A stretch of DNA of 12,569 nt. Source: a virus. The stretch lies in IMG/VR virus record IMGVR_UViG_3300020216_000004, one strand, 5' to 3'. The notes below the pieces were generated by a model. That model saw only the letters and a list, made by a program, of their open reading frames with translations, ran no database searches and was not told where the DNA came from. Positions 1-12,569 of the stretch are shown here, piece after piece. The translations under genes and the position numbers were made by a program. Numbering within the stretch: the stretch's first letter is position 1; each line of letters begins with the position of its first letter.

Positions 1-576
1 CCCCTATTGTAAATTGTCAGACAATTCCCCATAACACATTAGAATATGATGAGTCAATAGATATGAGAGTAATATTAGTCAACACTAATTAAAATATAAT
101 AATAGAAAGATATGCAGTGGAAATGTATATAGAATAACTCAACAATAATAACAACTATAAATAATAAACTAGAATACTATAACACCAGTTAATTAGATAA
201 CTACTAGAAACACGATAACAACAGGTATGATAGAATACTATAAATAATAATATATAAATTAAATAAACTAAATTAAATAATAATAAATAATAACTATTAT
301 AAGATATCTGATAATTGAATATATACGAATAAATAAACTATATGAATTAGAGATAATAGTAATTAGGAATAATAATAATAGAAATGAATTAGAAGTGTAT
401 AGGAGGTGTTTGAATAGACAAGGTGAAGACTTACCTATCAAAGGTATTGAAACACTCACAACAAGCTTATATAGACTGTGAGATGTAGTATGTGATATAG
501 GTGTATGTAGATATAATAAAAGAAGTTATCTATAGAATTAACTATAAATAACCTCTTGTAATTTTGTATGGTTTAT
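1..576. repeat. Left inverted terminal repeat (ITR), 576 bp
   Basis: I reverse-complemented 1..576 in 60-nt blocks against 11994..12569 and found no mismatch. Identity ends at 577 (t) versus 11993 (c). The repeat starts at window base 1, so this looks like a true genome terminus. Confidence 0.95.
12..26. promoter_or_regulatory. Terminal palindrome AATTGTC-A-GACAATT, a candidate origin or protein-binding site (mirror copy at 12544..12558)
   Basis: Perfect 7-bp arms around a single central base. It is bracketed by CCCC at 1..4 and 27..30, and ATTGT is directly repeated at 6..10 and 13..17. It lies 11 nt from the genome end, where protein-primed replication origins are located. Confidence 0.4.
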
Positions 577-3500
577 TTAATTACTACTCCACTAGCAAGT
601 AACTGTTCTATGATATCTTTTTCATCTTCTGAAGCTGATATATCTAAGAATACATCAGATACTTCTACATAACCGTCTACTTCATGTAGGGTTACATAGT
701 CATTGGATTGCTTACCAAAGTCTGAGTTAGATTCATAAGGTATGTTTCTAATAACCTCAATGAATGGAGTTTCTAACTCGTTATGAATGTATCTACCAAT
801 CTCAGTTATTAGTGTATCTTTAGAAGACCTCATGAATGGTATCTCATGTGTTAATGGTATATCAGTTCTTGATACTAGCTTATTGCCTATCTTGCTACTG
901 TACACATTAAGGGTAGCTGTAGCATTGTATAGGTCTAACGATAGGGTAAGCTTGATATCTTGGTTAATAACATAGTCAGGGTCTATATAGATAGGCTGTT
1001 CATTGTATGGTACATGAATGTTAGTCTCAGTCTCCATATAGTCATAAACGTTGTGGTGCTCCTCTTCAACACGAATAGTTCCTAGGTCGAATAGAACCTT
1101 GTTATCTAACATGTAGTTAGCTTCTGCGTTCGATGTCCTTTGACCTATATTGATAGGTACTACTGCGTTACTAATCATCTCTTCAGGTAACTTAACAGGT
1201 AATGAATATAGGTTGTAGAAATAGTCTCCATAGTCTACTGTCTCACCGTTTACCAGGTCACCAAATCTATCTACACTTAAGGTGTTCAGTATAGACTGGT
1301 TAACAGGGTAGATATTAACGAAATTAGATACAAAACCGTCATAGGTCTTTTCTGAAGCTACTGCTGTAACTATAATCAGGGTAGTACCTGTGAATCGGTC
1401 TTCCCAGTACTCACCAATATTAAGAGTAAATACTGTCTTGTCTTCGTTAAAGTTAGGGTCTTCATCAGGGTATAAGTTAATTAAGTCAGGTGAATTATTA
1501 TCAAAGGTTCTAATGTCTAACTCAATACCTTCGTTGAATACAAAGCCATTATCAGCTGTAATTACAATAGTGTCCTCCTGGTTAACACCTCTACCTTCTG
1601 GAATGTTAGAGCTAGCGTTAACTAATTCTGACCCGAATCTGGCTCTAGGATAGCCTGCTATAGCTTCTACATGAATAGACTCTACTGTATCGGTAACTAA
1701 GGTGCTGAAGTCTAAACTTAATACTGTACCCTCTTCATTAAACTCTCCAGGTACTTCATGGAGCTTGTAGGAGACTTCTGAGCCATCTCCAAGGGTAACG
1801 GTAACCTCATGTAACTCAAAGCCTTCTAAAGCTTCATAATTGACTACAGTGAAGTTTGATACCGTATCGCTCTCGATACTTGATACTACGTTCTCTAATT
1901 CTTCGGTATACCCTACCTCAATTAACTCAGCTGTTGTAACCTGAATCTCTAAGGTAGTTAAGCCTGGTTCAAAGTATTCAGCAGGAATGATTTCAATTAC
2001 AGATTTACCTTCTACATCAGTTAAGTTTACTGTTTCATCATCACCGATTAAGGTAACTGAGTTCAGTATATAACCTTCATCAGAAGTAACTGTAATAGCT
2101 TGGTCTGGTTCTACCTCGATACCCTCTACATCTGTACTAGCGTTCTCTAACTCTTCATAGTACCGAATAGGGAAAGACTCTACAATCTCTTCCTGAGTGA
2201 TTACTGATATAGCAATGGTTAGATGGTCACCGTCTTCGAAATAGTCACCCCACTCGAATTTAACGTTACCATTCTGACCATATACTGGTAAGCTTACTGT
2301 CTCATAGGTATCTGGTGTACCAGGTGAACCTCCGAAACCGTTCCGTGGTGGCTCTCCATCAGTTCTCATGATTAACTCGATAGACTCGAAAGCGTGCGTG
2401 CTATAGGTCAGAACATCTACTGTATCGTTCTCATAGAGTCGTGTTACCCCATAGTAAGGGTAGTTCTCCCAAAACCCGCTTGAGTCTCCATTTACAGGCA
2501 TATCCCAGGTTACAGATTTAGGTGGCTTGTCACCTCTTACCTCTATAGCTGTGACTGGTTCTACTAATACCTCTTCGTCTATAACTTCCCTAGATACCTC
2601 TATACCGTCTTCATAGGTAATTAGAATTGTTAGGTTAGCTAATCCATCTGAACCCTCTATGTATTCTGTATCACCAATTAGAATCGTATCGTCATAGACT
2701 ACCTCTTCATCGTGAGGAATAACCTCTTCTACTGTGATAGTTTCTGTGGTAACTTCAGGCTCATAGTTAGGGTCTGCATAGGTGTATACCAACGTATCGA
2801 AACCTTGAAGCTCTCCAGGGTTAGGATAACCTCTACCTGGTGCATAGGTAAATTCTGTTTGCTCATATACGTTGTCGTCATCGTTAGGTATCTCAGCGTC
2901 CTGTACATCTAGTAACCAACCATCGTTAACTGTCCAAACATCTACTGAAATTGTGTCGAACGTATAACCAGGGTTAGCTCTAATTGTGATTGGTTGAGCC
3001 CATTGGTAAGTATCAGGTTCTACTGTATATGTATCATCATTCCCCTGCTTACTGATTGGTACAGGGTCATACGTTGGTTCTAACGTACCTATTACCTGGA
3101 TAGCATTAACAGGTTCTAACACTACCTCATACCCTATAACTTCCCTAGATACTTCTACACCGTCTTCTAAGGTAATCTCATAGGTAATACTCATGATACC
3201 CTCAGTACCCTCTATAAGCTCTTCCTCACCTACAGGCATAGTATCGTCTTCTACGGTATCTGTTTCATACTCTATTGGTTCTTCTATCGTCTCTTCTTCT
3301 ACAGTTATTACAGGTTCAGTCTGTACAGGTGTTACATAGATGTCAATAATCGTTAAGTCCGGGTAATAAGTAGTGTTACCATCTCGTAACTCATGTACGA
3401 TATAAGAGTTTGTAGGCTCGAAATATACTGTGTTAGCTTCTCTATCTACTTGGATATATTGAGGATATTCTGCGTCTGTGTATTTACCTCTAGCGTTGGT

Positions 3501-3752
3501 AATGTACCCTGAACCTAAGTCTTCTTCTACCTCTACTCTATCAATCGTGTAATCTTGACTAACGGTTAATATGTAATCATGGTGCCAATTAAAGCTTGTA
3601 GAAACCGATTGTGTATTCTCAACATTTACAACGATATCGTCTACATCTGTAGAGCCATCAGTATTAAACACGTTAAACTCTACATATTTGTCTGTACTCG
3701 TTGCTATGGGTCTAGTAGACTCTTTTTCACCGAATCTAAATGCAAGTGCCAT
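573..3752 (-). CDS. Large modular tail protein (1059 aa): repeated beta-rich modules plus two G5 domains, fused to a phi29 gp9-like tail-knob C-terminal domain
   Basis: Start is preceded by AGGAGGTTAAATA-ATG, with the SD embedded in the last codons of the upstream ORF. The C-terminal ~255 aa (about nt 576..1346) end in ...GYVEVSDVFLDISASEDEKDIIEQLLASGVVIK, resembling the phi29 gp9 C-terminus ...[33 protein letters not shown] (recalled). It is the last gene of the structural block. Its TAA stop (573..575) lies just inside the ITR. Confidence 0.8.
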   Translation of the reverse strand: MALAFRFGEKESTRPIATSTDKYVEFNVFNTDGSTDVDDIVVNVENTQSVSTSFNWHHDYILTVSQDYTIDRVEVEEDLGSGYITNARGKYTDAEYPQYIQVDREANTVYFEPTNSYIVHELRDGNTTYYPDLTIIDIYVTPVQTEPVITVEEETIEEPIEYETDTVEDDTMPVGEEELIEGTEGIMSITYEITLEDGVEVSREVIGYEVVLEPVNAIQVIGTLEPTYDPVPISKQGNDDTYTVEPDTYQWAQPITIRANPGYTFDTISVDVWTVNDGWLLDVQDAEIPNDDDNVYEQTEFTYAPGRGYPNPGELQGFDTLVYTYADPNYEPEVTTETITVEEVIPHDEEVVYDDTILIGDTEYIEGSDGLANLTILITYEDGIEVSREVIDEEVLVEPVTAIEVRGDKPPKSVTWDMPVNGDSSGFWENYPYYGVTRLYENDTVDVLTYSTHAFESIELIMRTDGEPPRNGFGGSPGTPDTYETVSLPVYGQNGNVKFEWGDYFEDGDHLTIAISVITQEEIVESFPIRYYEELENASTDVEGIEVEPDQAITVTSDEGYILNSVTLIGDDETVNLTDVEGKSVIEIIPAEYFEPGLTTLEIQVTTAELIEVGYTEELENVVSSIESDTVSNFTVVNYEALEGFELHEVTVTLGDGSEVSYKLHEVPGEFNEEGTVLSLDFSTLVTDTVESIHVEAIAGYPRARFGSELVNASSNIPEGRGVNQEDTIVITADNGFVFNEGIELDIRTFDNNSPDLINLYPDEDPNFNEDKTVFTLNIGEYWEDRFTGTTLIIVTAVASEKTYDGFVSNFVNIYPVNQSILNTLSVDRFGDLVNGETVDYGDYFYNLYSLPVKLPEEMISNAVVPINIGQRTSNAEANYMLDNKVLFDLGTIRVEEEHHNVYDYMETETNIHVPYNEQPIYIDPDYVINQDIKLTLSLDLYNATATLNVYSSKIGNKLVSRTDIPLTHEIPFMRSSKDTLITEIGRYIHNELETPFIEVIRNIPYESNSDFGKQSNDYVTLHEVDGYVEVSDVFLDISASEDEKDIIEQLLASGVVIK
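2529..2741 (-). other. G5 domain 2 within the tail protein (aa ~338-408)
   Basis: TITVEEVIPHDEEVVYDDTILIGDTEYIEGSDGLANLTILITYEDGIEVSREVIDEEVLVEPVTAIEVRGD is a paralogue of domain 1. The DNA also matches: 2581..2621 versus 3136..3176 agree at 37 of 41 nt (ATAACTTCCCTAGATAC...). Confidence 0.75.
3084..3311 (-). other. G5 domain 1 within the tail protein (aa ~148-223)
   Basis: VITVEEETIEEPIEYETDTVEDDTMPVGEEELIEGTEGIMSITYEITLEDGVEVSREVIGYEVVLEPVNAIQVIGT fits the G5 pattern: I-x-[FY]-x-T-x(3)-D-x(2)-[LM]-x(2)-G, then EG-x-x-G, Y-E-[IV]-T, DG-x-E-V-x-R-E-V, P-V-x-x-I-x-V-x-G-T. Confidence 0.75.
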
Positions 3753-3755
3753 TAT

Positions 3756-4187
3756 TTAACCTCCTATCGTTACTAAAATAATATTCTCTTCAAACTCTAG
3801 TGTTACATCGCTATCGTATATATCGTGAGTCTTCCTAACCTCACTTGGATAGTCTCCACCGTTATAATATGGGTTATGTCCTAAGTGTTTAGATACAACA
3901 CCCTTACAAGCTAGTATCTCATCTTTGAAGCTTTCTAATACGTCTACCTCTAAGATTAATCTGGATAGATTATTTCTTTGAGCTATGATATCCTTAACGA
4001 AATAGAAGCGTTCGAAATCTGGGATATAAGCATAATTTTTACTGGTACGCTCTCCTTCTTTTAGGAGTATTTCAGGGTTTAATACATCAGCTTCACCTCT
4101 GAATTGAACTTCATAGGTAGCTTCATCAGATAACTCTTTATTGATAGTGTTATTGGAGCTGGTTGTGTTATACAACTTTATTTCCAT
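3756..4187 (-). CDS. 143-aa tail protein resembling the N-terminal domain of the phi29 gp9 tail knob / distal tube protein
   Basis: SD AAGGAGGG lies upstream of the ATG. NYAYIPDFERFYFVKDIIAQRNNLSRLILEVDVLESF...GVVSKH...IILVTIGG parallels recalled gp9 [42 protein letters not shown]...FIVREH...MFLVIISKS. The ORF stops 3 nt before the start of the 1059-aa ORF. Confidence 0.65.
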   Translation of the reverse strand: MEIKLYNTTSSNNTINKELSDEATYEVQFRGEADVLNPEILLKEGERTSKNYAYIPDFERFYFVKDIIAQRNNLSRLILEVDVLESFKDEILACKGVVSKHLGHNPYYNGGDYPSEVRKTHDIYDSDVTLEFEENIILVTIGG

Positions 4188-4208
4188 GTGGTGTTACCCT
4201 CCTTAGTT

Positions 4209-4245
4209 ATAAAAAAATAGAGGTAGAGTTCCCCAACTCCACCCC
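4209..4245 (-). terminator. Rho-independent terminator downstream of the major capsid gene
   Basis: Minus-strand RNA reads GGGGUGGAGUU-GGGG-AACUCUACCUC, an 11-bp stem with two G-U pairs and a GGGG loop. It is followed directly by UAUUUUUUUAU. Confidence 0.7.
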
Positions 4246-4283
4246 TACAGGTAATAAAGCATGGCATTGCTTTATTGATTCTT

Positions 4284-5444
4284 TTAAGCTACAAGGAACA
4301 CAAGGAAGTTTTCATTTAAGTCATTGAAGTATCCTGCGTCCATCTTGTAATAGTTCGTGAAGAACTCGGCTTTAGCATTATAGTTTGAAGTAACTCGTCG
4401 GTCTAAGTTAGCAACTCCTACCGCTTGGCTATCAAACATAACTCCTAAGATTCCGGAAGCTTCTATTTCTGTATTTTTAGTAGCTACGTTAATTTTAGAT
4501 ACTGATTCAAAGTCATATGTATCTCCTGAACCTTGCCAGTATGGTACTGTTTCGTAATTAGGTAGCTGAACCATTTCACTATTATATGTATCTGATTGTA
4601 AGAATGTTTTAGTAGCACTTGCAAAGTCAGATAATAGAACAATAGTAACTTCTGATTCTGGTGTAAATTTCTCTTTCCCACCAACGTTAAATAATGTAGA
4701 AATCTTACTCATACGGTCTTTATATAGGTTAACTAAGTATGAAGCAAAACGAATAAATTCAGGGTCTCTATAGCTTTCATCTGGTGTTAGAGCTTCACCT
4801 GATTTTTCGTTGTATAATGCAAGTAAGTTAATTGCTTTAACTCCTGTTTGAGTTAAATCTAAAGTACCTTCAGCATTGGTTAAGTCATCTGATAATGTTT
4901 CAGCAGTCATATTGTTGATTGCTCTCATTACCAATCCATCTAGTTTAATAGTCATAGATTTCTCTACACCATTGAAAATCATAGTTAAGAATCCATTTAA
5001 TTGTTCTGCGTTTGAGAATGATTCTTTAACTTGTAATTCAGTAAATGAAATTGGTACTTCAAATGTTACCTTAGAGTTAAAGAACTTAGCTGATACCTTA
5101 GGTTGATAGAACACATCTTGGATATAACGCTGTCCATCCTCTAGAGCCCAAGACTCGTTCTCGTGTGCTTCAGGAATATCAGAAGAAATCTTTTCTAAGA
5201 TAGAACCATATTCCCAACCGTCCATAATTACACTAGGAACGTTACCTGAATAAACTCTATCATCAAAGATTACCTTACCAATATGGTTAACTAGTTTCTT
5301 TACATAGTTATCAATGTTATCTGAATCAATGATTTCATTACCAACATCTACAATGTTAGATAAGTCTTCTTGTACAACGTCTTCACGTCCTAAGACTTGT
5401 TCTGTAGCTGTATTCATAATGTCATGTATTTGCGTTACTCTCAT
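4284..5444 (-). CDS. Major capsid protein (386 aa), phi29 gp8-like HK97 fold
   Basis: The N-terminal region ...NIDNYVKKLVNHIGKVIFDDRVY... parallels recalled gp8 ...[22 protein letters not shown].... Its size and position in the structural block fit, and it is flanked by its own extended -10 element and a terminator, as expected for the most abundant virion protein. Confidence 0.8.
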   Translation of the reverse strand: MRVTQIHDIMNTATEQVLGREDVVQEDLSNIVDVGNEIIDSDNIDNYVKKLVNHIGKVIFDDRVYSGNVPSVIMDGWEYGSILEKISSDIPEAHENESWALEDGQRYIQDVFYQPKVSAKFFNSKVTFEVPISFTELQVKESFSNAEQLNGFLTMIFNGVEKSMTIKLDGLVMRAINNMTAETLSDDLTNAEGTLDLTQTGVKAINLLALYNEKSGEALTPDESYRDPEFIRFASYLVNLYKDRMSKISTLFNVGGKEKFTPESEVTIVLLSDFASATKTFLQSDTYNSEMVQLPNYETVPYWQGSGDTYDFESVSKINVATKNTEIEASGILGVMFDSQAVGVANLDRRVTSNYNAKAEFFTNYYKMDAGYFNDLNENFLVFLVA

Positions 5445-5475
5445 TATTCATTTCCCCTTTTTCTATTTTATATAT

Positions 5476-6096
5476 TTAATATACCAACGTACCAACCGTT
5501 TGACTTACATCTTGGAATATATTTTCTACTAAAACTTTGTTATTTAGATATCTAACTGCTTTCTCTCGGTCGTCGATAGCGTTGGAAGTATTTCCCTTAG
5601 TTTCAGAAGTCCTTGTTTCATTACCGCTTGTTATCTCTGAGTTGTCTCCAGTATTAGTACTACTTTGAGTGTTCTCGTCAGAGTCAGCAAAGTCTTCTGA
5701 GTTGTACCCTGCAACTGAATTAGTTTGCTTGTCATTACTAGTGTTAGAGTAGTCAGTAATGTTACTACTATCTGACTCAGTTTTTTCAGTTGTGGTTAGG
5801 TTATATGTCTCTAGTGGTATCTCAGCCTTATAAACTTCTGCAAGCTTATTCCATTTGTCAGCGTACATACCATATAACATACTAGCTATTAATTTTAAGT
5901 CTTCCTCTTTAACATTCTCTTTCTCTCCAATTAAGTTATTAACTAGGGGAGAAACCTTCCTGCTACCGTGTTGACTCACGAATAGCAGGTCAGTAGTTGA
6001 GATGTCTTGGAAGTCATTTAGGAGTTCTATATCACCAATCTCATTGAGATAGTGAAACAGACCTTTACCTTCTTTGTATAAGTCTCTTATATTCAT
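5476..6096 (-). CDS. 206-aa structural protein of uncertain role (lower-collar/adaptor or scaffold candidate)
   Basis: A clean ORF between the portal and capsid genes. It has an N-terminal helical-looking ~100 aa, a central ~70-aa S/T/N/D/E-rich low-complexity tract (TTEKTESDSSNITDYSNTSNDKQTNS...TSGNETRTSETKGNTSN), and a short conserved-looking C-terminus. Its position after the portal matches gp11, and its position before the capsid matches gp7. Confidence 0.6.
   Translation of the reverse strand: MNIRDLYKEGKGLFHYLNEIGDIELLNDFQDISTTDLLFVSQHGSRKVSPLVNNLIGEKENVKEEDLKLIASMLYGMYADKWNKLAEVYKAEIPLETYNLTTTEKTESDSSNITDYSNTSNDKQTNSVAGYNSEDFADSDENTQSSTNTGDNSEITSGNETRTSETKGNTSNAIDDREKAVRYLNNKVLVENIFQDVSQTVGTLVY
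5478..5486 (-). promoter_or_regulatory. Extended -10 element TGGTATATT upstream of the capsid gene
   Basis: The minus strand reads TTGGTATATTAA and overlaps the last codons and stop of the 206-aa ORF. The capsid SD (AAGGGG) and ATG lie about 20-35 nt downstream. It is one of four TGnTATATT copies, all at gene junctions. Confidence 0.5.
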
Positions 6097-6118
6097 ACCC
6101 TTATTACTCCCTATCTAT

Positions 6119-6127
6119 AATATAGCA
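6119..6127 (-). promoter_or_regulatory. Extended -10 element TGCTATATT upstream of the 206-aa gene
   Basis: The minus strand reads TTGTGCTATATTATAGATAGGGAG in the 82-nt portal/206-aa intergenic gap, with the SD 7 nt downstream of the hexamer. No convincing -35 is present. Confidence 0.5.
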
Positions 6128-6178
6128 CAAAGGCTACTTTAAAATTTGATAGTAGAGGTGCGTTCTAACAACGCTAGA

Positions 6179-7525
6179 TTACTCTACTTCTACTTCTTCC
6201 TTGTCTTCTTCTTCCTCTTCTTCAGGTTCTTCTAGAATCTCTTCTAAGTCTTCTACTAAGTCCTCTTTGTCTTCCTCTTCAACTGGTTCATCAGTCTCTA
6301 AGGTTTCCTCTAAGTCCTCTTCAAAGTCTTCTACATCCTCTTTAAGCTCTACATCCTCAATATCTACAGTATCTTGTTCAGGTAACTCTTCTACTTCCTG
6401 CTCAGGTAGTTCTTCAGAAGTATCTTGAATAGGTAAGTCCTCTACTTCTTGTTCAGGTAGTTCTGAGTCGTATTCTAGGTCTAATATAACCTCTTCAGTT
6501 TCTTCTACAGGGTTAACTTCATCTTGCTCCTCAAACTCTTCAGAAGCCTCATAATCACCTTTTAAGAAACTGTCAGAAATCTCTCTAGCTTCATCTATAC
6601 TGATACCTTCATTACCTTCTTCGTTAAGCGTGTTAACCTCGTCTTGGTTCTCTCTATAGTCAGTCCATGAAGAGCTTAGCTTAACTGTAATGTTTTGGTC
6701 GAACATCTCGTTAACCTCTTCTATAGCTTCCTTACGATGGGATAACATATCATCAATTAGAGGGTATAAGCTTTCACTATTTACCTGTACTTCATCAGTA
6801 ATTAAACGCTCTTTCTTCATGTTGTTATTAGCATTTAAACCAATCTCGTTGTACATAGTAGCTTTAAGGTACTGTTGAAACTCTACAAGGTCACTAATAT
6901 TAGTTTTAGAACCTTCACCAACTGCGTTTGATTTCAAACTATCGAATAGCTTATTCTCAAAGATATATCCTAAGTTACCCTTTTCAATGTTATCTAAGTA
7001 CTCTTTAGCTGACTCAGCTGTATTATCATCAGCAACCGAAATCATGTTATTGATACGGTTATTGAATGTAGTTAACATCATAGTAATCTCATTTTCATTC
7101 ATGAAAGTACCATACTTAGAGTAGATAGGAACTAACCCCATAAGCATATAGTCATTTTTCATAAGTACTATGTCTTCACCAATTTTAAGGTTACCATTGT
7201 AGTTAAGGTAAGGGTTTGAGACTGTAAATAAAGTTGGTTTTCCATATACGTTAGGCTCTCCACCTAGTCCACCATAGAAGGCATATAGTTCTCCTTCTAC
7301 CTTAGTTAACCCCGCGTAACCGTTTGTCTGTAGCAGGCGTTCTAACTCTTTAGCAGGTAGTGAATCGGGTAACCCTTCATACTCAAACATCTGTAAAGAC
7401 CTGTTAAGCATGTAGTTTACATGGTTTCTTACGTTGATTTGCTTATCATCATACTGGTACTTAATACCTTTAATACCATTGTATAAGCCCCAATCATATC
7501 GCTCATTGTATTTGCTTTTACTCAT
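6179..7525 (-). CDS. Portal / upper collar connector (448 aa), phi29 gp10-like core plus a polyacidic C-terminal extension
   Basis: LQMFEYEGLPDSLP parallels recalled gp10 YQLFEWENLPPTINP, and NMKKERLITDEV parallels LEKKERMVTDEV. The start is AAGGAGCGTATAT-ATG, overlapping the ATPase stop. The homologous core ends near aa 285, and aa 291-448 are about half Asp/Glu. Confidence 0.9.
   Translation of the reverse strand: MSKSKYNERYDWGLYNGIKGIKYQYDDKQINVRNHVNYMLNRSLQMFEYEGLPDSLPAKELERLLQTNGYAGLTKVEGELYAFYGGLGGEPNVYGKPTLFTVSNPYLNYNGNLKIGEDIVLMKNDYMLMGLVPIYSKYGTFMNENEITMMLTTFNNRINNMISVADDNTAESAKEYLDNIEKGNLGYIFENKLFDSLKSNAVGEGSKTNISDLVEFQQYLKATMYNEIGLNANNNMKKERLITDEVQVNSESLYPLIDDMLSHRKEAIEEVNEMFDQNITVKLSSSWTDYRENQDEVNTLNEEGNEGISIDEAREISDSFLKGDYEASEEFEEQDEVNPVEETEEVILDLEYDSELPEQEVEDLPIQDTSEELPEQEVEELPEQDTVDIEDVELKEDVEDFEEDLEETLETDEPVEEEDKEDLVEDLEEILEEPEEEEEEDKEEVEVE
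6365..6466 (-). repeat. Tandem 2 x 51-nt (17-aa) repeat inside the acidic portal tail
   Basis: SELPEQEVEDLPIQDTS is followed by EELPEQEVEELPEQDTV (aa 354-387). On the plus strand, 6388..6413 and 6439..6464 match at 23 of 26 nt. Confidence 0.85.
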
Positions 7526-7536
7526 ATATACGCTCC

Positions 7537-8667
7537 TTATAGTTGTTTACTAACGTTTAAGTAGTTATTAACTGAATCTCCTACATCATTATCTTGATAG
7601 AACACTTTATCAGTATCAAAGAAATACTTAATGTTTTTACCTAGCTTGTTAACTGGTTTATGAATACTTCTTTGATAGTTGAACTTGTGACTGAACTCTA
7701 AGCTGTAAATGATGTCTTCGTCTTCATCCTTGATTGGTGTTGTCTTATCATGAATGAATGTAAACATCTCATTATCTACCTCTATGATTTCACATTGATA
7801 AATGAATCCATCAAACTTAATAAAGTAGGTTAGTAAGATATCTTTAGCTTTATATTTAACTGGTAAGTGAGGGTAGATATCTAATTCCCATGCACCATCT
7901 GTAATCATGTTTAACTTAGGGTTATCAAAGGCAAAGTAGAAGTTATTCTTTTTATTTTTTGATGTTGATTGTGCATACTCTACTGCTACCTTTAAGTTAG
8001 AATCCCCATATGTGTAGAGGTCTATAGTTCCCTGGTCTTGCTTATGGATATGCTTAAGCCCCATCTCGTTAAAGTAAGGGCTGTACTTATTAACCGTGTT
8101 ACCTAGCATGAATATCGTTACATCTTTACGTTGGCGTATAATCGTACTCAACGTATTCATGAAGAGTACAAACTCATCCTTTAAGTACATACCTCTGGTT
8201 AAGAACTCATCAAAGAGTATTGTCTTAATATTAGGGTAAGAGAATGATTTGTTATGTTCTGTATCTGACAAAGCAAACACATAGGCAAAGATATCACTAT
8301 CGCTGTATACCGCTCTACCTTCATCATCGTAGTTACAGAAGTAGAATCTACCTGAGTAATAGGTAATACCTTCAAACTTACCATCACTAATCTTATAGAT
8401 TTCATCGTTGGCAATTAGGGCACTAAAGATTTCACTAGCTCTTTTACCCTTAATGTCTTCTTGCCACCGTCTAAGGAGGGCTAACTGCCCGCCATTTTCA
8501 AAGTATACCTCTATAGCATGCTTCAGTACTGCGTATGTCTTACCATTGGAACGTTCCCCGAATATAACGTTATAAACTGCTTTTTTAGATAGAATAGCGT
8601 TCAGGTTATAGTAGCTATCCTGTTTATTTTTAGGTTTGTCTTTTTTGCTTGTATCTGTTTGTACCAT
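7537..8667 (-). CDS. DNA encapsidation ATPase, phi29 gp16-like (376 aa from the preferred start)
   Basis: Walker A is GERSNGKT (8536..8559). Walker B YPNIKTILFDEFL matches recalled gp16 YPNVSTIVFDEFI, and NKYSPYF matches VVNPYF. I prefer the ATG at 8665..8667 (GGAGGTTATCAG-ATG) over the ORF-track ATG at 8709. The 8709 start has no SD and lies upstream of the TGCTATATT element at 8690..8698. Confidence 0.9.
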   Translation of the reverse strand: MVQTDTSKKDKPKNKQDSYYNLNAILSKKAVYNVIFGERSNGKTYAVLKHAIEVYFENGGQLALLRRWQEDIKGKRASEIFSALIANDEIYKISDGKFEGITYYSGRFYFCNYDDEGRAVYSDSDIFAYVFALSDTEHNKSFSYPNIKTILFDEFLTRGMYLKDEFVLFMNTLSTIIRQRKDVTIFMLGNTVNKYSPYFNEMGLKHIHKQDQGTIDLYTYGDSNLKVAVEYAQSTSKNKKNNFYFAFDNPKLNMITDGAWELDIYPHLPVKYKAKDILLTYFIKFDGFIYQCEIIEVDNEMFTFIHDKTTPIKDEDEDIIYSLEFSHKFNYQRSIHKPVNKLGKNIKYFFDTDKVFYQDNDVGDSVNNYLNVSKQL

Positions 8668-8689
8668 CTGATAACCTCCATCACTATAT

Positions 8690-8698
8690 AATATAGCA
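8690..8698 (-). promoter_or_regulatory. Extended -10 element TGCTATATT upstream of the ATPase gene
   Basis: The minus strand reads CAGGTGCTATATTATATAGTGATGGAGG, between the polymerase stop (8724) and the ATPase SD (8675..8679). Confidence 0.5.
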
Positions 8699-8723
8699 CC
8701 TGAGTTCATCTAATCTGCTTAGA

Positions 8724-10865
8724 CTAGATAGCCCTTGTTAGTTTCTCACCTTCATAGATATACCCTTTACGGTATCTTTCAATCAATTGAGTTTGTTTCT
8801 CTAAAGGTGATAACGTAAATTCAGCATTCTCTAGGTGTATACCTGATTTAGTGTAGACTGCTTCTTTTACCCCTCTATAATCGGTTATCACAAACTGCTT
8901 AATGTCATCAATGTAAACGTGATTCATATTACCTGTATCTTCAGCAGGGATAGATAAGCTCTTATTAAAGTTGTTAAACACGTTCGTGTTGTCTCCAAAG
9001 GTTCTCTGAAGGTAAGATAAGCCCTTGTCCTTACTTAAGCCTGCTAAGGTCATTTCTAGGTCTCCTGTAGCCTTATCTTCAACTAGATACTGCTTAGCTC
9101 CTAGTGCTTTAAAACGGCTGTATTTACCGTCTAATTCCCATGTACCTATAAGTTTCTTTTCACCGTATTTGTTCTCGGGTCTAAGTCTCTCAAAGTCTAT
9201 CGTGAAAGACTCATCACTAACGGGTTTATTTAGGGTATCTACCATCTTCTTAAGCTTCATTTCAATCATCTTGTTATACTGTTCAAAGAAGCCTTCATGC
9301 TTCTCAGGTTCTTTAAGCTTAACTGCGTCTGTATCTGAGTAAACATAGTCATCTTTAAGGTTCAGGATAGCCACCCAAAGGTTTCTGCGGGCATAGGCTG
9401 TTGTCCATACACCCCAAGGGTAATATAAGAAGCGGGAGTGCTTGGTGTTGTATTTCTCAATCTGTTTATCAGGAGTCTCTTCTTCTATGTCCTCAGTCTC
9501 TTCAAAGTCAGGCTGTTTTCTAACTACATCTGTAACGGTCATACCGTATACTGAGTTAAGCATTTCCTTGCTTAGTAAATACTCAGTTTGTCGGTCAGGA
9601 ACGCCTTTATTGATTGTTTTTTTCTCATATAATGTTATAATAGACTTAATAAGGTTTCTAGGTAGATAGTCCTTTTTGAACCTATAAACATTGGCTATTT
9701 GCATAGATTCCCAATCATAGACTTTTTGAATAATCTCAAAGTCTACATCTGTAATTGTGGTTACCAGTTCATCAGCCGAAAACACTCTACCGTTATTTAC
9801 AATCGGTTTTTTAACAACATGGCATTTTGACTCTGATATGTAGTTCTCAAAATCAATCTTACTGATAAGGTCTTTGAATCTTACATCAAAGAGTAAGGCA
9901 TAGCCCTGCTTGATATAATGGTTTAAGTCCTTATCCTTTGTTAGCTTGGTACTGATTCCTTCACTCATAGGGAACTGTTCAGATAGCATAGCGGCAGGGT
10001 AAGAGCTTATCAGGTCATAACTGGCTACATCCTCAATTACCTCATTAGCATAGCTTGGATTAGCGTGTGTGAAACCACCCATAAATCCATCCTTGCTCTT
10101 TTCGTATACATCTCTAGTTAACTGAAGCTTAAGCATTAAGTTTCTATAGTCTGTACGTTTACCCCTACTCGTTTTCTTGTGGTCGGTATTCGTGTAATAA
10201 CAGTTGTGTCGAATGTAATTTCTAACTCTAGCTGTATTGGTTAACGGTATCTTGGATATATTCCCGTATATCCTTCTTTGTTCGTTAATGTAATACAGTA
10301 TAATTAGTACATCATTTCTCATGTACTCTAGCTCTTTAGTGAATAGTACTGTGTTCTGGTGTCTTACCTTAGTATAATCAAGTTCACCTTTGAGTTTCTT
10401 AATCTCATGGTGTACAAGGCTGTCAGCTACATCTGACAAGCTTTTACCGCTTAGTATATAACTATCACGAAACTCTATACCTGATTTAGTGGTGGCTGTG
10501 ATTGGTTTCCTGCTGTCAGTTCCGAAAACTTGCTTCCAGGTAAACCATTTTCTCATGAACTGAAATTCATAAGATAAGTTATGTATATAAACGATAAGCC
10601 TTCTATCTTCCTTTAAGTTGTAAAACTTTTGTAGATAGTTGACTAGTTCACGGAATTGCTTCCAAGTCCTTCCATGAACGATATTCTCATTATTCTTTAT
10701 TCCGAAAGTCCAGGCATACATGAAACCAACTTTTTCACCATCTACAATGGTAGAAGTTGTTTCAACATCGAATGCACATTCAATGTCTACATATGTAGCG
10801 TTGCCTTTTCTTTTGTTTGATTTTATTTCTTTGTGGTCTATGTCTTCCAAATTTAAACCATACAT
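8724..10865 (-). CDS. Protein-primed family-B DNA polymerase (713 aa), phi29 gp2-like
   Basis: Motifs seen: Exo I AFDVETT; Exo II IHNLSYEFQF; Exo III YMRNDVLII; motif A DLISSYPAAM; motif B KEMLNSVYG; motif C YSDTDA (9324..9341, checked at the DNA level); KxY GAKQYLV. Long inserts between motifs A-B and B-C sit where phi29 has TPR1 and TPR2. Confidence 0.95.
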   Translation of the reverse strand: MYGLNLEDIDHKEIKSNKRKGNATYVDIECAFDVETTSTIVDGEKVGFMYAWTFGIKNNENIVHGRTWKQFRELVNYLQKFYNLKEDRRLIVYIHNLSYEFQFMRKWFTWKQVFGTDSRKPITATTKSGIEFRDSYILSGKSLSDVADSLVHHEIKKLKGELDYTKVRHQNTVLFTKELEYMRNDVLIILYYINEQRRIYGNISKIPLTNTARVRNYIRHNCYYTNTDHKKTSRGKRTDYRNLMLKLQLTRDVYEKSKDGFMGGFTHANPSYANEVIEDVASYDLISSYPAAMLSEQFPMSEGISTKLTKDKDLNHYIKQGYALLFDVRFKDLISKIDFENYISESKCHVVKKPIVNNGRVFSADELVTTITDVDFEIIQKVYDWESMQIANVYRFKKDYLPRNLIKSIITLYEKKTINKGVPDRQTEYLLSKEMLNSVYGMTVTDVVRKQPDFEETEDIEEETPDKQIEKYNTKHSRFLYYPWGVWTTAYARRNLWVAILNLKDDYVYSDTDAVKLKEPEKHEGFFEQYNKMIEMKLKKMVDTLNKPVSDESFTIDFERLRPENKYGEKKLIGTWELDGKYSRFKALGAKQYLVEDKATGDLEMTLAGLSKDKGLSYLQRTFGDNTNVFNNFNKSLSIPAEDTGNMNHVYIDDIKQFVITDYRGVKEAVYTKSGIHLENAEFTLSPLEKQTQLIERYRKGYIYEGEKLTRAI

Positions 10866-10883
10866 TAAAGTCTCACCCCTAAC

Positions 10884-11453
10884 CTACATGTCGAACCAAT
10901 CCCAGGTATTAATTTCATTCTCAATGTTCACCTGGTCAGCTTTAGCTTCTTCTATAAGAGCTTCTAGGTGGTCGCTTAGTTCACCTATTTCCAATCCTTC
11001 TCGTTCAGCATAGTTATTGATAAGAGCCCATCTTTCCTGGTACTCCATATATGTTGAATCCGGGTCGTTCTTTTGGTACTGCTCTAGCTTAGAAGCTACA
11101 TCAGCTGTCTCTTTAATCTTATTAGGTAAGTCTCTAATAGAGTTATACTTAATACCCATTCTATCAGCGGTATCTTTAAGTACTCTATTTGCTCCCCTTA
11201 CAAGGCTTGTCTTGGAGTTTAAGAAGTTATCTACCCTGTTGAGTTCTTTTCTAAGTACGTTAACATCAGTTCCCGCTGATGAAAATCGTTCTCCTCCACG
11301 GTAGTTATTCTCATTACTCCAAGACCTGTAAGCAGGCAAGCCTGTTAAGTCATTCTCTTCCAATCGCTTTAACCGTTTATTGGCTTTAGACACCTTACCT
11401 CTTAGTTCATCGGTTAATCGTTTAGCTTCACCTTCCAGTTTTAGCTTCATCAT
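10884..11453 (-). CDS. Candidate terminal (priming) protein, 189 aa
   Basis: It lies immediately upstream of the protein-primed polymerase, as in phi29, Cp-1, PRD1 and Bam35. The start has a strong SD (AAGGAGGAGTTTAATGA-ATGATG). The N-terminus is basic (KVSKANKRLKRLEE) and the C-terminus is acidic and helical. Resemblance to recalled phi29 gp3 is only weak. Confidence 0.5.
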   Translation of the reverse strand: MMKLKLEGEAKRLTDELRGKVSKANKRLKRLEENDLTGLPAYRSWSNENNYRGGERFSSAGTDVNVLRKELNRVDNFLNSKTSLVRGANRVLKDTADRMGIKYNSIRDLPNKIKETADVASKLEQYQKNDPDSTYMEYQERWALINNYAEREGLEIGELSDHLEALIEEAKADQVNIENEINTWDWFDM

Positions 11454-11468
11454 TCATTAAACTCCTCC

Positions 11469-11735
11469 TTATATCTCGAATACATTACTGATAAAGACCT
11501 TCTTATTAAGACCTTTACTGAGGTTATAGTAATGATAGAGGTAATCTATACTGTTGGCATTTCCATGCTCGAAAGCTGATACACTCTTGATGTTAAGGTC
11601 AGTTAACTCTCCAAAATCAGTTAGAGATAACCTTAAGTAATCCTCTCGATACTTCTTACAGAACCTACCTATCTTCTTCATACGTTGTTTCTTATCGTAT
11701 TTACCTACATTCTCTTTAGTAAGTGTGTTATCCAT
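11469..11735 (-). CDS. XRE-like helix-turn-helix DNA-binding protein (88 aa)
   Basis: IGRFCKKYREDYLRLSLTDFGELTDLNIKSVSAFEHGNANS fits the HTH_3/Cro-C1 pattern (R-x(3)-L-S-x(3)-[FL]-x(4)-[VIL]-x(3)-[VIL]-S-x-[FIW]-E-x-G). The start is GGAGGATTAAC-ATG. It is the second gene of the early transcription unit. Confidence 0.6.
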   Translation of the reverse strand: MDNTLTKENVGKYDKKQRMKKIGRFCKKYREDYLRLSLTDFGELTDLNIKSVSAFEHGNANSIDYLYHYYNLSKGLNKKVFISNVFEI

Positions 11736-11745
11736 GTTAATCCTC

Positions 11746-11868
11746 CTATTTAATAGTTTCCCAGTATTCCATCAATTCTACATAAGCAAGTAATCCACCT
11801 GCTGTAAACTTCGCATTACTACGCTCACATAACTTCTTGTAGTCGAATATCATCTGTACGTTAACCAT
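11746..11868 (-). CDS. Small 40-aa ORF, first gene of the early unit (absent from the supplied ORF track)
   Basis: I translated it by hand as MVNVQMIFDYKKLCERSNAKFTAGGLLAYVELMEYWETIK. The start is AAGGAGGTATTGA-ATG. Its TAG stop abuts the SD of the HTH gene. No family was recognised. Confidence 0.45.
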   Translation of the reverse strand: MVNVQMIFDYKKLCERSNAKFTAGGLLAYVELMEYWETIK

Positions 11869-11901
11869 TCAATACCTCCTTGTCTATGACCTCTTATACC
11901 T

Positions 11902-11930
11902 AATATAGCATAACTACTCTAGTAATCTAA
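11902..11930 (-). promoter_or_regulatory. Candidate early promoter: TTAGAT, 17-nt spacer, (TGC)TATATT
   Basis: The minus strand reads TTCTTAGATTACTAGAGTAGTTATGCTATATTAGG, about 27 nt upstream of the SD of the first ORF. A consensus TTGACA also lies further upstream (11951..11956) but has no good -10 partner. Confidence 0.5.
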
Positions 11931-11993
11931 GAATAGGATAATTATTCTAATGTCAATAGAACACTGCGTACAGATATACAATTACAGTATACC

Positions 11994-12569
11994 ATAAACC
12001 ATACAAAATTACAAGAGGTTATTTATAGTTAATTCTATAGATAACTTCTTTTATTATATCTACATACACCTATATCACATACTACATCTCACAGTCTATA
12101 TAAGCTTGTTGTGAGTGTTTCAATACCTTTGATAGGTAAGTCTTCACCTTGTCTATTCAAACACCTCCTATACACTTCTAATTCATTTCTATTATTATTA
12201 TTCCTAATTACTATTATCTCTAATTCATATAGTTTATTTATTCGTATATATTCAATTATCAGATATCTTATAATAGTTATTATTTATTATTATTTAATTT
12301 AGTTTATTTAATTTATATATTATTATTTATAGTATTCTATCATACCTGTTGTTATCGTGTTTCTAGTAGTTATCTAATTAACTGGTGTTATAGTATTCTA
12401 GTTTATTATTTATAGTTGTTATTATTGTTGAGTTATTCTATATACATTTCCACTGCATATCTTTCTATTATTATATTTTAATTAGTGTTGACTAATATTA
12501 CTCTCATATCTATTGACTCATCATATTCTAATGTGTTATGGGGAATTGTCTGACAATTTACAATAGGGG
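11994..12569. repeat. Right inverted terminal repeat (ITR), 576 bp
   Basis: Exact reverse complement of 1..576 and ends at the last base of the window. The identical 63-aa ORF reported at 268..459(-) and 12111..12302(+) is a by-product of this repeat. Confidence 0.95.
12095..12123 (-). promoter_or_regulatory. Weak inward-facing promoter candidate inside the ITR: TTGAAA, 17-nt spacer, TATAGA (mirror copy 447..475 on the plus strand)
   Basis: Sequence match only. At the right end it would read toward the early genes. At the left end the mirror copy would read antisense into the 3' end of the tail gene. Confidence 0.25.

Follow-up and report, generated by a model that had tools for sequence, protein, structure and literature searches.

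How does a tailed phage leave its host when its genome holds no recognizable gene for lysis? The question is raised by IMG/VR virus record IMGVR_UViG_3300020216_000004, 12,569 nucleotides (nt) of viral DNA (here "the window," meaning the whole stretch that was analyzed), which is a complete linear genome bounded by inverted terminal repeats (ITRs). Gene content and order identify the window as an astrithr-like, phi29-related mini-podovirus, and comparison with its relatives indicates that it has lost the holin/endolysin cassette that they carry, a specific absence at both of the syntenic slots. The clade itself is already known; the lysis-less state is a real, testable oddity.

No lysis or wall-cutting gene is detected in the window

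Ten open reading frames (ORFs), all on the minus strand, lie within 573-11868. GGAGG-type Shine-Dalgarno (SD) sequences precede 8 of the 10, and the nine intergenic gaps (3, 96, 31, 82, 11, 14, 18, 15, and 10 nt) total so little that 97.5% of the block is coding, in line with the one-strand, short-gap layout described in the initial annotation of this DNA. The same annotation had proposed a near-minimal gene set, and the profile searches agree: among the window proteins, Pfam, PHROGs, and NCBIfam recognize only Phi29_MCP, Phage_connector, Podovirus_Gp16, DNA_pol_B_2, and two G5 domains, and no lysin, holin, single-stranded DNA-binding (SSB), or DNA-binding protein (DBP) family. Relative to phi29 (Salasmaviridae), with which it shares the major capsid protein (MCP), the connector, the gp16 ATPase, the protein-primed DNA polymerase, and a gp9-homologous knob, the window lacks the gp12 appendages, the gp13 tail lysin, the gp14 holin, the gp15 endolysin, gp5, and gp6, and it has no Rfam-recognizable pRNA.

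Each of the familiar routes to lysis was considered in turn. For a canonical holin-endolysin pair, no peptidoglycan hydrolase domain and no small membrane holin were detected in the window. Transmembrane (TM) segments were defined as 19-residue windows with a Kyte-Doolittle mean of at least 1.6; none of the ten proteins has one, and neither does any same-strand ORF of at least 20 amino acids (aa) outside the ITRs, embedded ORFs included. The hydrophobic same-strand ORFs are confined to the ITRs and have no SD sequence. For single-gene lysis of the amurin type, there is no embedded same-strand TM ORF of at least 20 aa, which counts against the embedded ORF suggested earlier as a hiding place for a lysis factor, and the 40-aa ORF that opens the early operon is hydrophilic. 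For a tail-tip hydrolase of the phi29 gp13 type, Pfam, PHROGs, and NCBIfam gave no lysozyme or M23 domain. Moreover, a hidden Markov model (HMM) built from the clade's own YvrJ-like holin family, and phmmer searches with ten lysins and holins of relatives (CHAP, M15, GH24, and Amidase_2 among them), found no match in the six reading frames of the window or of its sister contig L004. The accessory early proteins of relatives, namely, the reverse-strand genes of astrithr and Phanie, a 117-123-aa family, and a PC4-type DNA-binding protein, were not found in the window either. The absence of an endolysin, holin, SSB/DBP, or tail hydrolase, which the initial annotation had judged by eye, therefore holds in profile, PDB-sequence, six-frame HMM, and hydropathy searches; the PDB-sequence and profile searches returned no canonical lysis domain.

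The lysis cassette of relatives is missing from both slots

In tblastn comparisons with cultured phages, the family B DNA polymerase (PolB) is 46-48% identical to those of astrithr, Astrid, assan, Phanie, DU_PP_III, and Entb_47. The MCP is 57-59% identical to its counterparts in cultured astrithr-like phages (59% for astrithr), and the packaging ATPase is 58-62% identical. The annotated genomes of the cultured relatives are collinear with the window, 9 of whose 10 ORFs have homologs in astrithr, Phanie, Entb_47, and metagenomic (IMG/VR) relatives at 26-76% protein identity. The group corresponds to "cluster 23" of the phi29-related phages, with genomes of 11-14 kb (PMC11476376). In accord with that placement, the window encodes a phi29-type MCP, a connector, a gp16 packaging ATPase, and a protein-primed PolB with a terminal-protein candidate upstream, has a linear genome with a 576-nt ITR, and splits its knob into a 143-aa N-part and a large protein with the C-part at its C terminus. 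The cluster 23 knob is indeed described as a small protein like the N-part of phi29 p9 plus the C terminus of a large protein bearing Ig-like domains (PMC11476376, section 2.6). The initial annotation had the gene set right but recognized neither the complete, ITR-bounded genome nor the astrithr-like family. Membership in the genus Astrithrvirus itself, for which nucleotide similarity to A. astrithr must reach about 70% across the genome, was rejected, as the similarity is at the protein level only (PolB, 47%; MCP, 59%).

The cultured members (astrithr, Astrid, and assan from Salmonella, Entb_47 from Enterobacter, DU_PP_III from Pectobacterium, and Phanie from Acinetobacter) have the same 11-14 kb genome with ITRs and the same order: early gene, terminal protein, PolB, ATPase, connector, ~200-aa protein, MCP, ~145-aa knob N-part, and knob C-part. 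They also share the Ig-like modules on the knob C-part protein and the early promoter element. All of them have a holin-family gene and an endolysin, a pair that is not phylogenetically clade-defining and that was not found in the window. A 62-70-aa single-TM protein (PHROG "holin," YvrJ-like; astrithr gp05 among them) is encoded between their ATPase and connector genes, and the endolysin, which is CHAP in astrithr and Phanie and M15 in Entb_47, directly follows the knob gene. The window is unlike every cultured member: searches found no YvrJ-like holin, no endolysin behind the knob gene, and no reverse-strand genes at the right end; its ITRs measure 576 nt rather than 144-171 nt; its tail protein has G5 domains, which theirs do not; and its host is probably Gram positive, whereas theirs are Gram negative.

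Metagenomic relatives, given here by L numbers, carry lysis genes as well. L011 and L012 have Amidase_2 lysins, and L011 has a YvrJ-like holin gene between ATPase and connector. The sister contigs L005, L008, L009, L018, and L019 (from IMG/VR, ENA, and JGI) resemble the window in MCP (69-73% identity), in structural order, and in having the tail gene last. They differ in that a GH24 phage lysozyme and Holin_LLH-like and YvrJ-like proteins are encoded between the connector and the 206-aa gene, and their tail proteins (379-384 aa) and connectors are short. L007 has a Phage_holin_4_1 protein at the same place. Indeed, a holin, in most cases accompanied by a GH24 lysozyme, is encoded at this junction in all seven partial sub-clade contigs that span it. 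Both slots are empty in the window, and the knob gene runs straight into the ITR. The slots and the genes that flank them are as follows.

5476-6096, minus strand: the 206-aa core protein, with clade homologs
6097-6178: empty slot 1, the connector/206-aa junction, 82 nt of non-coding sequence
6179-7525, minus strand: connector (upper collar), Phage_connector PF05352 (2.4e-21), also recognized by PHROGs
7526-7536: empty slot 2, the ATPase/connector junction, 11 nt, where astrithr, Phanie, Entb_47, and L011 have a YvrJ-like holin gene
7537-8709, minus strand: gp16-type DNA packaging ATPase, Podovirus_Gp16 PF05894 (4.9e-20), also recognized by PHROGs

The wider clade was surveyed in 56 near-complete genomes from metagenome and GTDB scans, with about 100 related contigs fetched; the relatives came from an alignment-based scan, a genome-contig scan with a single MCP query having given no matches. 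The YvrJ-like family is present in 35 of the 56 and a recognized lysin (CHAP, M15, GH25, Amidase_2, ELLD+CW_7, or NlpC/P60) in 22; GH24 was seen only on shorter sub-clade contigs outside this set. Neither is found in 20 genomes, most of which still have unassigned ORFs of at least 90 aa. The window and L004 have no lysin, no YvrJ-like gene, and no such unassigned ORF.

Loss of the cassette is a lineage trait

L004 is the closest structural match to the window (MCP, 76% identity; ATPase, 74%; connector, 68%; 143-aa protein, 60%) and has the same ten-gene layout, no lysis gene that we could find, and ITRs of 748 nt. Because the loss is common to this sister, we regard it as stable in the lineage rather than as a single defective case. 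The two genomes are alike in further respects. Other clade genomes with detectable ITRs have repeats of 20-277 nt, nearly all 49-277 nt, so those of the window and L004 are by far the longest; the phi29 ITR is 6 bp. In both, the tail gene is enlarged, the connector ends in a long acidic tail, and the genome size is ~12-12.5 kb. In the window connector, a ~150-residue Glu/Asp-rich C-terminal extension (~6182-6628, minus strand) consists of imperfect repeats of the form ELPEQEVE-D/E-LP...; that of L004 is similar, whereas sister contigs with a lysis cassette have only ~15-25 acidic residues there. The extra non-coding and tail sequence, with the ITRs perhaps serving as stuffer DNA, may compensate for the lost ~1.2-kb cassette and so keep the capsid full.

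1-576: ITR at the tail-gene end, 28% GC, beginning CCCC and holding the tail-gene stop codon (573-575)
11994-12569: ITR at the early-gene end, 100% complementary to 1-576

Long, perfect repeats raise the suspicion of an assembly artifact or a defective deletion variant, the true genome having lysis genes where the long ITR now sits. The repeat is indeed far longer than those of relatives, and among the assemblies of this phage one JGI scaffold is plainly a chimera. That scaffold, L014 (JGI Ga0116604_10136), is an independent assembly of the same genome, 99.97% identical with 3 mismatches. Within its 30.8 kb, the phage is joined (locus 1-1690) to bacterial DNA that is GC rich and includes a truncated transketolase gene. 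Because the two parts meet at a single "N," 499 nt inside the ITR, and the junction cuts the bacterial gene short, we take the scaffold to be chimeric and rejected it as evidence of integration, of a prophage, or of a host link. Four observations nevertheless make an artifact highly improbable: the cassette of the sub-clade is internal, at the connector/206-aa junction, and the tail gene is last in L005, L008, and L011 too; the tail protein is full length to its conserved C terminus; the tail-gene/ITR junction is the same in two assemblies that differ by 3 single-nucleotide polymorphisms; and L004 independently has the same architecture. The CCCC termini, moreover, are those of cultured Entb_47, and of L011 and L076.

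The L004 repeats (1-748 and 11329-12076) include the last 68 nt of its tail gene and contain an internal duplication of ~200 nt in which a 15-nt unit, GTGAGAAGTCAACAA, is present in 2 versus 7 copies; their outermost part may have been over-extended by the assembler.

Lysis, and perhaps entry, may be supplied by a helper phage

Because the lysis genes of its closest relatives have been lost, the phage probably needs either a helper phage or its host to leave the cell. The reading that we prefer, tentatively and at somewhat less than an even chance, is that a co-infecting helper phage provides in trans the functions for lysis and perhaps also for entry. On this reading, the phage would replicate by its own protein priming, with terminal protein and PolB, and would itself supply its packaging ATPase, capsid, and connector; its minimal tail would be a split knob (the 143-aa N-part and the C-terminal domain of the 1059-aa protein) with a G5/Ig-like adhesin array. 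With the holin/endolysin cassette lost and no tail-tip wall hydrolase, it would not lyse the host alone, and would exit, perhaps also enter, through functions of the helper, as satellites do.

We favor this reading because of three lines of evidence. The first is Phanie, whose virions can infect only when joined to the Aci01-1 myophage's contractile tail, according to the account in PMC11476376 (citing Pourcel et al. 2024). The second is that capsid-encoding satellites such as Ando, Mulchroom, and P4 have no lysis genes and rely on their helper (PMC13587820). The third is shared architecture: like Phanie, a member of the same family, the window has a split knob whose large protein carries a long Ig-like array (gp10 in Phanie), and neither has a tail fiber, spike, or tail-tip lysin of its own. 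The lack of detectable lysis genes in the window is in turn a general satellite feature. P4, MiniFlayer, Mulchroom, and Ando (the last three from Streptomyces) are also similar to the window in genome size (11-13 kb), in having their own capsid genes, and in having no lysis genes (PMC13587820). They differ in having no genes for a tail, and several of them integrate or do not replicate autonomously, whereas the window has protein-primed replication, a knob tail, and no integrase. A hint in the same direction may come from separate branches of the clade, where minimal, apparently lysis-less genomes also occur (L015, L046, and L060): L015 (8925-9314) and L046 (8729-9118) encode an HK97-gp10-like/Neck1 "tail completion" protein of the long-tailed-phage type, which may reflect attachment to a long tail of foreign origin. 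A PC4-like DNA-binding protein is encoded by L015 as well.

Several points weigh against helper dependence. We identified no helper. Phanie, for which the dependence is reported as experimental in the account cited above and to which the window is only compared here, keeps a CHAP+CW_7 endolysin and a holin-family gene, so dependence for entry alone does not predict that lysis genes are lost. The Salmonella phage Astrid is described as a non-satellite (bioRxiv 10.1101/2025.06.18.659913). The G5 domains look like direct adhesins for the host wall or surface and so favor autonomous adsorption. No function has been assigned to the 40-aa ORF or to the small ITR ORFs, and structural modeling excludes a novel hydrolase fold only incompletely over tail-protein residues 1-530 (pLDDT < 50). 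The initial annotation had offered a hidden lysin or host autolysins as explanations. The movable cassettes of other clade members, specifically missing here, give together with Phanie a more concrete explanation than either.

The tail protein resembles an adhesin rather than a hydrolase

The largest product of the window, the 1059-aa tail protein, had been named as a place where a lysin might hide. It opens with a beta-rich N-terminal region; two G5 domains separated by an X module come next, then a further module and three Ig-like repeats, and the knob domain closes the chain at the C terminus.

573-3752, minus strand: the 1059-aa tail protein, adhesin array plus knob C-part, with no Cys, no TM segment, and no enzymatic family match
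2529-3299, minus strand: G5-X module-G5, residues ~152-408 (G5, E 3.4e-29 in two stretches; DNA repeat D4, 80% identity)
1383-2162, minus strand: three Ig-like repeat modules, residues 531-790 (iterated module HMM, i-E 1e-19 to 1e-28)
576-1316, minus strand: tail-knob C-part domain, residues 813-1059, with C-terminal homology to astrithr gp10, Entb_47, and Phanie gp10

The absence of any cysteine excludes CHAP and NlpC/P60 catalysis, and inspection of the sequence found no HxH or HxxxD motif of M23 enzymes. Together with the repeated, non-catalytic modules and the knob domain, this makes the protein a poor place for a hidden lysin. A PDB sequence search returned one weak match (E 0.33) over the first G5 region. 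HMMER searches of residues 224-530 against 1.84 billion representatives gave matches that were nearly all G5-only, the sole informative relative being P0040, which is also the closest tail homolog (41% identity over 456 residues). P0040 carries the X module as a tandem pair, an arrangement typical of a structural module. The Ig-like repeats (residues 531-602, 615-694, and 706-790) recur in the tail proteins of L004, L005, L008, L010, L011, and Phanie. We conclude that the N-terminal ~800 aa are an adhesin-like G5 and Ig-like array that would functionally cover the "missing tail fiber"; the earlier statement that the genome has no tail fiber or appendage is thus true in name, but overlooked this array.

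The knob C-part has 36 homologs. Its AlphaFold2 model has a mean pLDDT of 75 and matches an Astrid protein in the BFVD database (Foldseek, E 2.7e-20); against the PDB, the same model did not recover phi29 gp9, the BFVD relatives being its only matches. The C terminus of the large Phanie protein has been equated with the C-part of phi29 p9 (PMC11476376, section 2.6), so the equivalence to gp9 rests on the literature and on the 143-aa partner. For the full-length protein (30-sequence alignment), the AlphaFold2 model was unusable over residues 1-800 (pLDDT < 50), and Foldseek against the PDB gave only non-significant beta-sandwich matches.

The G5 domains most like these belong to proteins of Gram-positive bacteria, namely, surface proteins with an LPXTG anchor and M23 wall hydrolases. 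In staphylococcal Aap and SasG, Zn2+ mediates self-association of the G5-E repeats. As the tail G5 domains resemble LPXTG-anchored G5 repeats, the phage might adsorb by homophilic binding to a G5 surface protein of its host.

A possible unrecognized lysis factor

An autonomous phage with a lysis or wall-breaching function that the searches failed to recognize is, in our judgment, unlikely but a serious alternative. The factor could be the 40-aa early ORF, one of the small ITR ORFs, a novel fold in tail residues 1-530, or a structural protein that moonlights as Q-beta A2 does. The tail N terminus is an orphan and poorly modeled, and G5 domains in bacteria frequently share a polypeptide with a wall hydrolase, M23 for example; on the other side stand the lack of Cys, G5 as the only family match, no predicted helix before residue 590, and the tandem X module of P0040. 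The 206-aa protein, also proposed as a hiding place in the initial annotation, is a poor candidate, as is the 143-aa protein, because both are core families that occur in lysin-carrying genomes too: the 206-aa family is found in 52 of the 56 near-complete genomes and the 143-aa family in all 56. A profile of the 206-aa family found no relative among PDB sequences; the protein is predicted to be a virion or assembly protein, core to the clade.

The first early ORF is another candidate: the window and L004 both have an SD-preceded ORF of 33-40 aa there, where relatives have the 117-123-aa gene or a zinc-ribbon ORF.

11746-11868, minus strand: 40-aa hydrophilic ORF with a strong SD sequence, no homolog, and no TM segment

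Its L004 counterpart (888-989, plus strand) is a hydrophilic 33-aa ORF in the same position. Both open the early operon and have a single Cys, at residue 14, but they show no significant similarity to each other, and neither has a TM segment. The small proteins of single-gene lysis characterized so far, those of phiX174 (E), MS2 (L), and phage M (LysM), are membrane proteins. A specific form of this alternative, in which an autonomous double-stranded DNA tailed phage of a walled Gram-positive host, with no holin, endolysin, or virion hydrolase, uses a new type of effector (either the first early protein, of 33-40 aa and not a membrane protein, or a structural protein moonlighting as a "protein antibiotic"), seems to us decidedly improbable. 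To our knowledge, the "protein antibiotic" strategy has been described so far only for single-stranded RNA and single-stranded DNA phages.

The unusually long ITRs provide the remaining candidates, each present twice. A 23-aa ORF (12089-12160, minus strand; mirror copy 410-481, plus strand) has a TTG start after AGGAGG and reads inward. A hydrophobic 63-aa ORF (268-459, minus strand, and its mirror copy) reads outward. Neither is conserved in L004. The 63-aa ORF was considered as a holin and rejected: it has a GTG start, no SD sequence, no counterpart in L004, and an AT-rich sequence, and hydrophobic ORFs arise by chance in 28%-GC DNA.

Host and possible release by the host itself

A walled Gram-positive host, which the initial annotation had inferred from SD usage and G5 domains, is plausible because of the strong SD sites, the LPXTG-anchored homologs of the G5 domains, and the Firmicute-type holin families of sister contigs (Phage_holin_4_1, YvrJ, and Holin_LLH). 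Many related contigs were binned in metagenome-assembled genomes (MAGs) from gut, rumen, and feces, and one comes from a fermentation metagenome; the names of these bins are too heterogeneous for a host assignment. At least nine short scaffolds of the isolate assembly of Herbiconiux daphne CPCC 203386 (L065, L073, L075, L096, L097, L099, L104, L106, and L107) carry different astrithr-like capsid genes, 46-61% identical to that of the window. They look like mixed-sample contamination, not a host link.

In such a host, an autonomous phage could be released by host autolysins or programmed lysis (for example, in de-energized Gram-positive cells or by mother-cell lysis), with no trigger from the phage. 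In Bacillus, autolysins become active when the proton motive force collapses, and LytA has a part in the release of pneumococcal phages; no lysin or holin was detected in the window, and the host is probably Gram positive. The known cases, however, are still triggered by a phage holin, and close relatives, presumably in similar hosts, keep full cassettes, which suggests that autolysis alone is not sufficient or not competitive. We consider release of this kind improbable.

Alternatively, the host might have no wall at all, as in Acholeplasma- or RF39-like Bacilli of gut, rumen, or digester, and lysis genes would be unnecessary, as in Mycoplasma phage P1. No wall-active gene of any kind was detected, the closest MAG-binned relative, L044 (65% MCP identity), lies in a "Bacilli bacterium" rumen MAG and another in a "Tenericutes" MAG, and the phi29-related Dybvigvirus infects Mycoplasma (PMC11476376). 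Nevertheless, the "Tenericutes" relative, L069, carries an ELLD lysin, and MAG binning of small phage contigs is unreliable. The nearest G5 homologs are sortase-anchored (LPXTG) wall proteins and M23 hydrolases of walled Gram-positives, and the GGAGG SD sites are strong. Nor is TGA a sense codon: the Mollicutes code (genetic code 4) was rejected since all ten ORFs are intact under table 11, and the absence of TGA among their stop codons (seven TAA, three TAG, 0/10 TGA) is not significant. A wall-less host is thus a slim prospect.

Other genes and regulatory features

The remaining features of the window are as follows.

520-557, minus strand: terminator-like hairpin directly 3' of the tail gene, within the ITR (mirror copy 12013-12050, plus strand)
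3756-4187, minus strand: 143-aa tail-knob N-part (minor knob protein), with homologs in all relatives
4217-4248, minus strand: strong terminator hairpin with a 14-bp stem, 3' of the capsid gene
4284-5444, minus strand: MCP of phi29 type, Pfam PF25622 (Phi29_MCP, 9.7e-52), also recognized by PHROGs
8724-10865, minus strand: protein-primed PolB, DNA_pol_B_2 PF03175, 47% identical to that of astrithr
10884-11453, minus strand: 189-aa terminal-protein candidate, directly upstream of PolB, homologous to astrithr gp02 and Phanie gp2
11469-11735, minus strand: 88-aa conserved early protein, with homologs in L004, L009, L011, L015, Entb_47, and Phanie
11869-11993, minus strand: early promoter region, with a TTGACA-containing element (~11942-11991) conserved with Phanie and Entb_47

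The profile of the 143-aa family matches the major tail protein of phage C1 (4EO2, E 2e-4), Andhra (8EGS_Y, 0.015), and phi29 gp9 (5FB4, 0.035). For the 189-aa candidate, it is relevant that a p3-like terminal protein is listed for phages of this group (PMC11476376). The 88-aa protein is probably an XRE-type helix-turn-helix regulator, judging from its sequence pattern.

The early promoter region holds, just inside the ITR, a ~50-nt element with TTCTATTGACATTAGAA that is 80% identical to the equivalent Phanie position and partly conserved in Entb_47; the positions compared are L003 188-236 and L002 ~11395. It is probably a conserved early promoter or operator, common to phages of very different hosts. 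The Rfam search found no pRNA and no other family in the window and gave two sub-threshold matches only, one of them a full-length match to cow-rumen-4 at 4194-4248 (minus strand; 26 bits against a gathering score of 48.5).

The window is also mosaic. Its structural genes are closest to those of L004, whereas PolB is 50% identical to that of L004 and 52-53% to those of L009 and L011, and the terminal protein is 26% identical to that of L004 and 37-38% to those of L009 and L011. This pattern points to exchange of the replication module.

Implications

The astrithr-like phages, at ~12 kb, are the smallest tailed phages known, and here one lineage has genes for replication, packaging, head, and knob tail, with nothing detected for lysis or wall penetration. 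Its ten-gene genome is directly synthesizable, and the sister contigs with a GH24/holin cassette provide a natural gain- and loss-of-function pair. If the phage is autonomous, a new lysis mechanism would be hidden in a genome small enough for gene-by-gene testing. If it is helper dependent, the "hitch-hiker" satellite lifestyle of the Phanie type would extend to Gram-positive hosts and to the lysis step.

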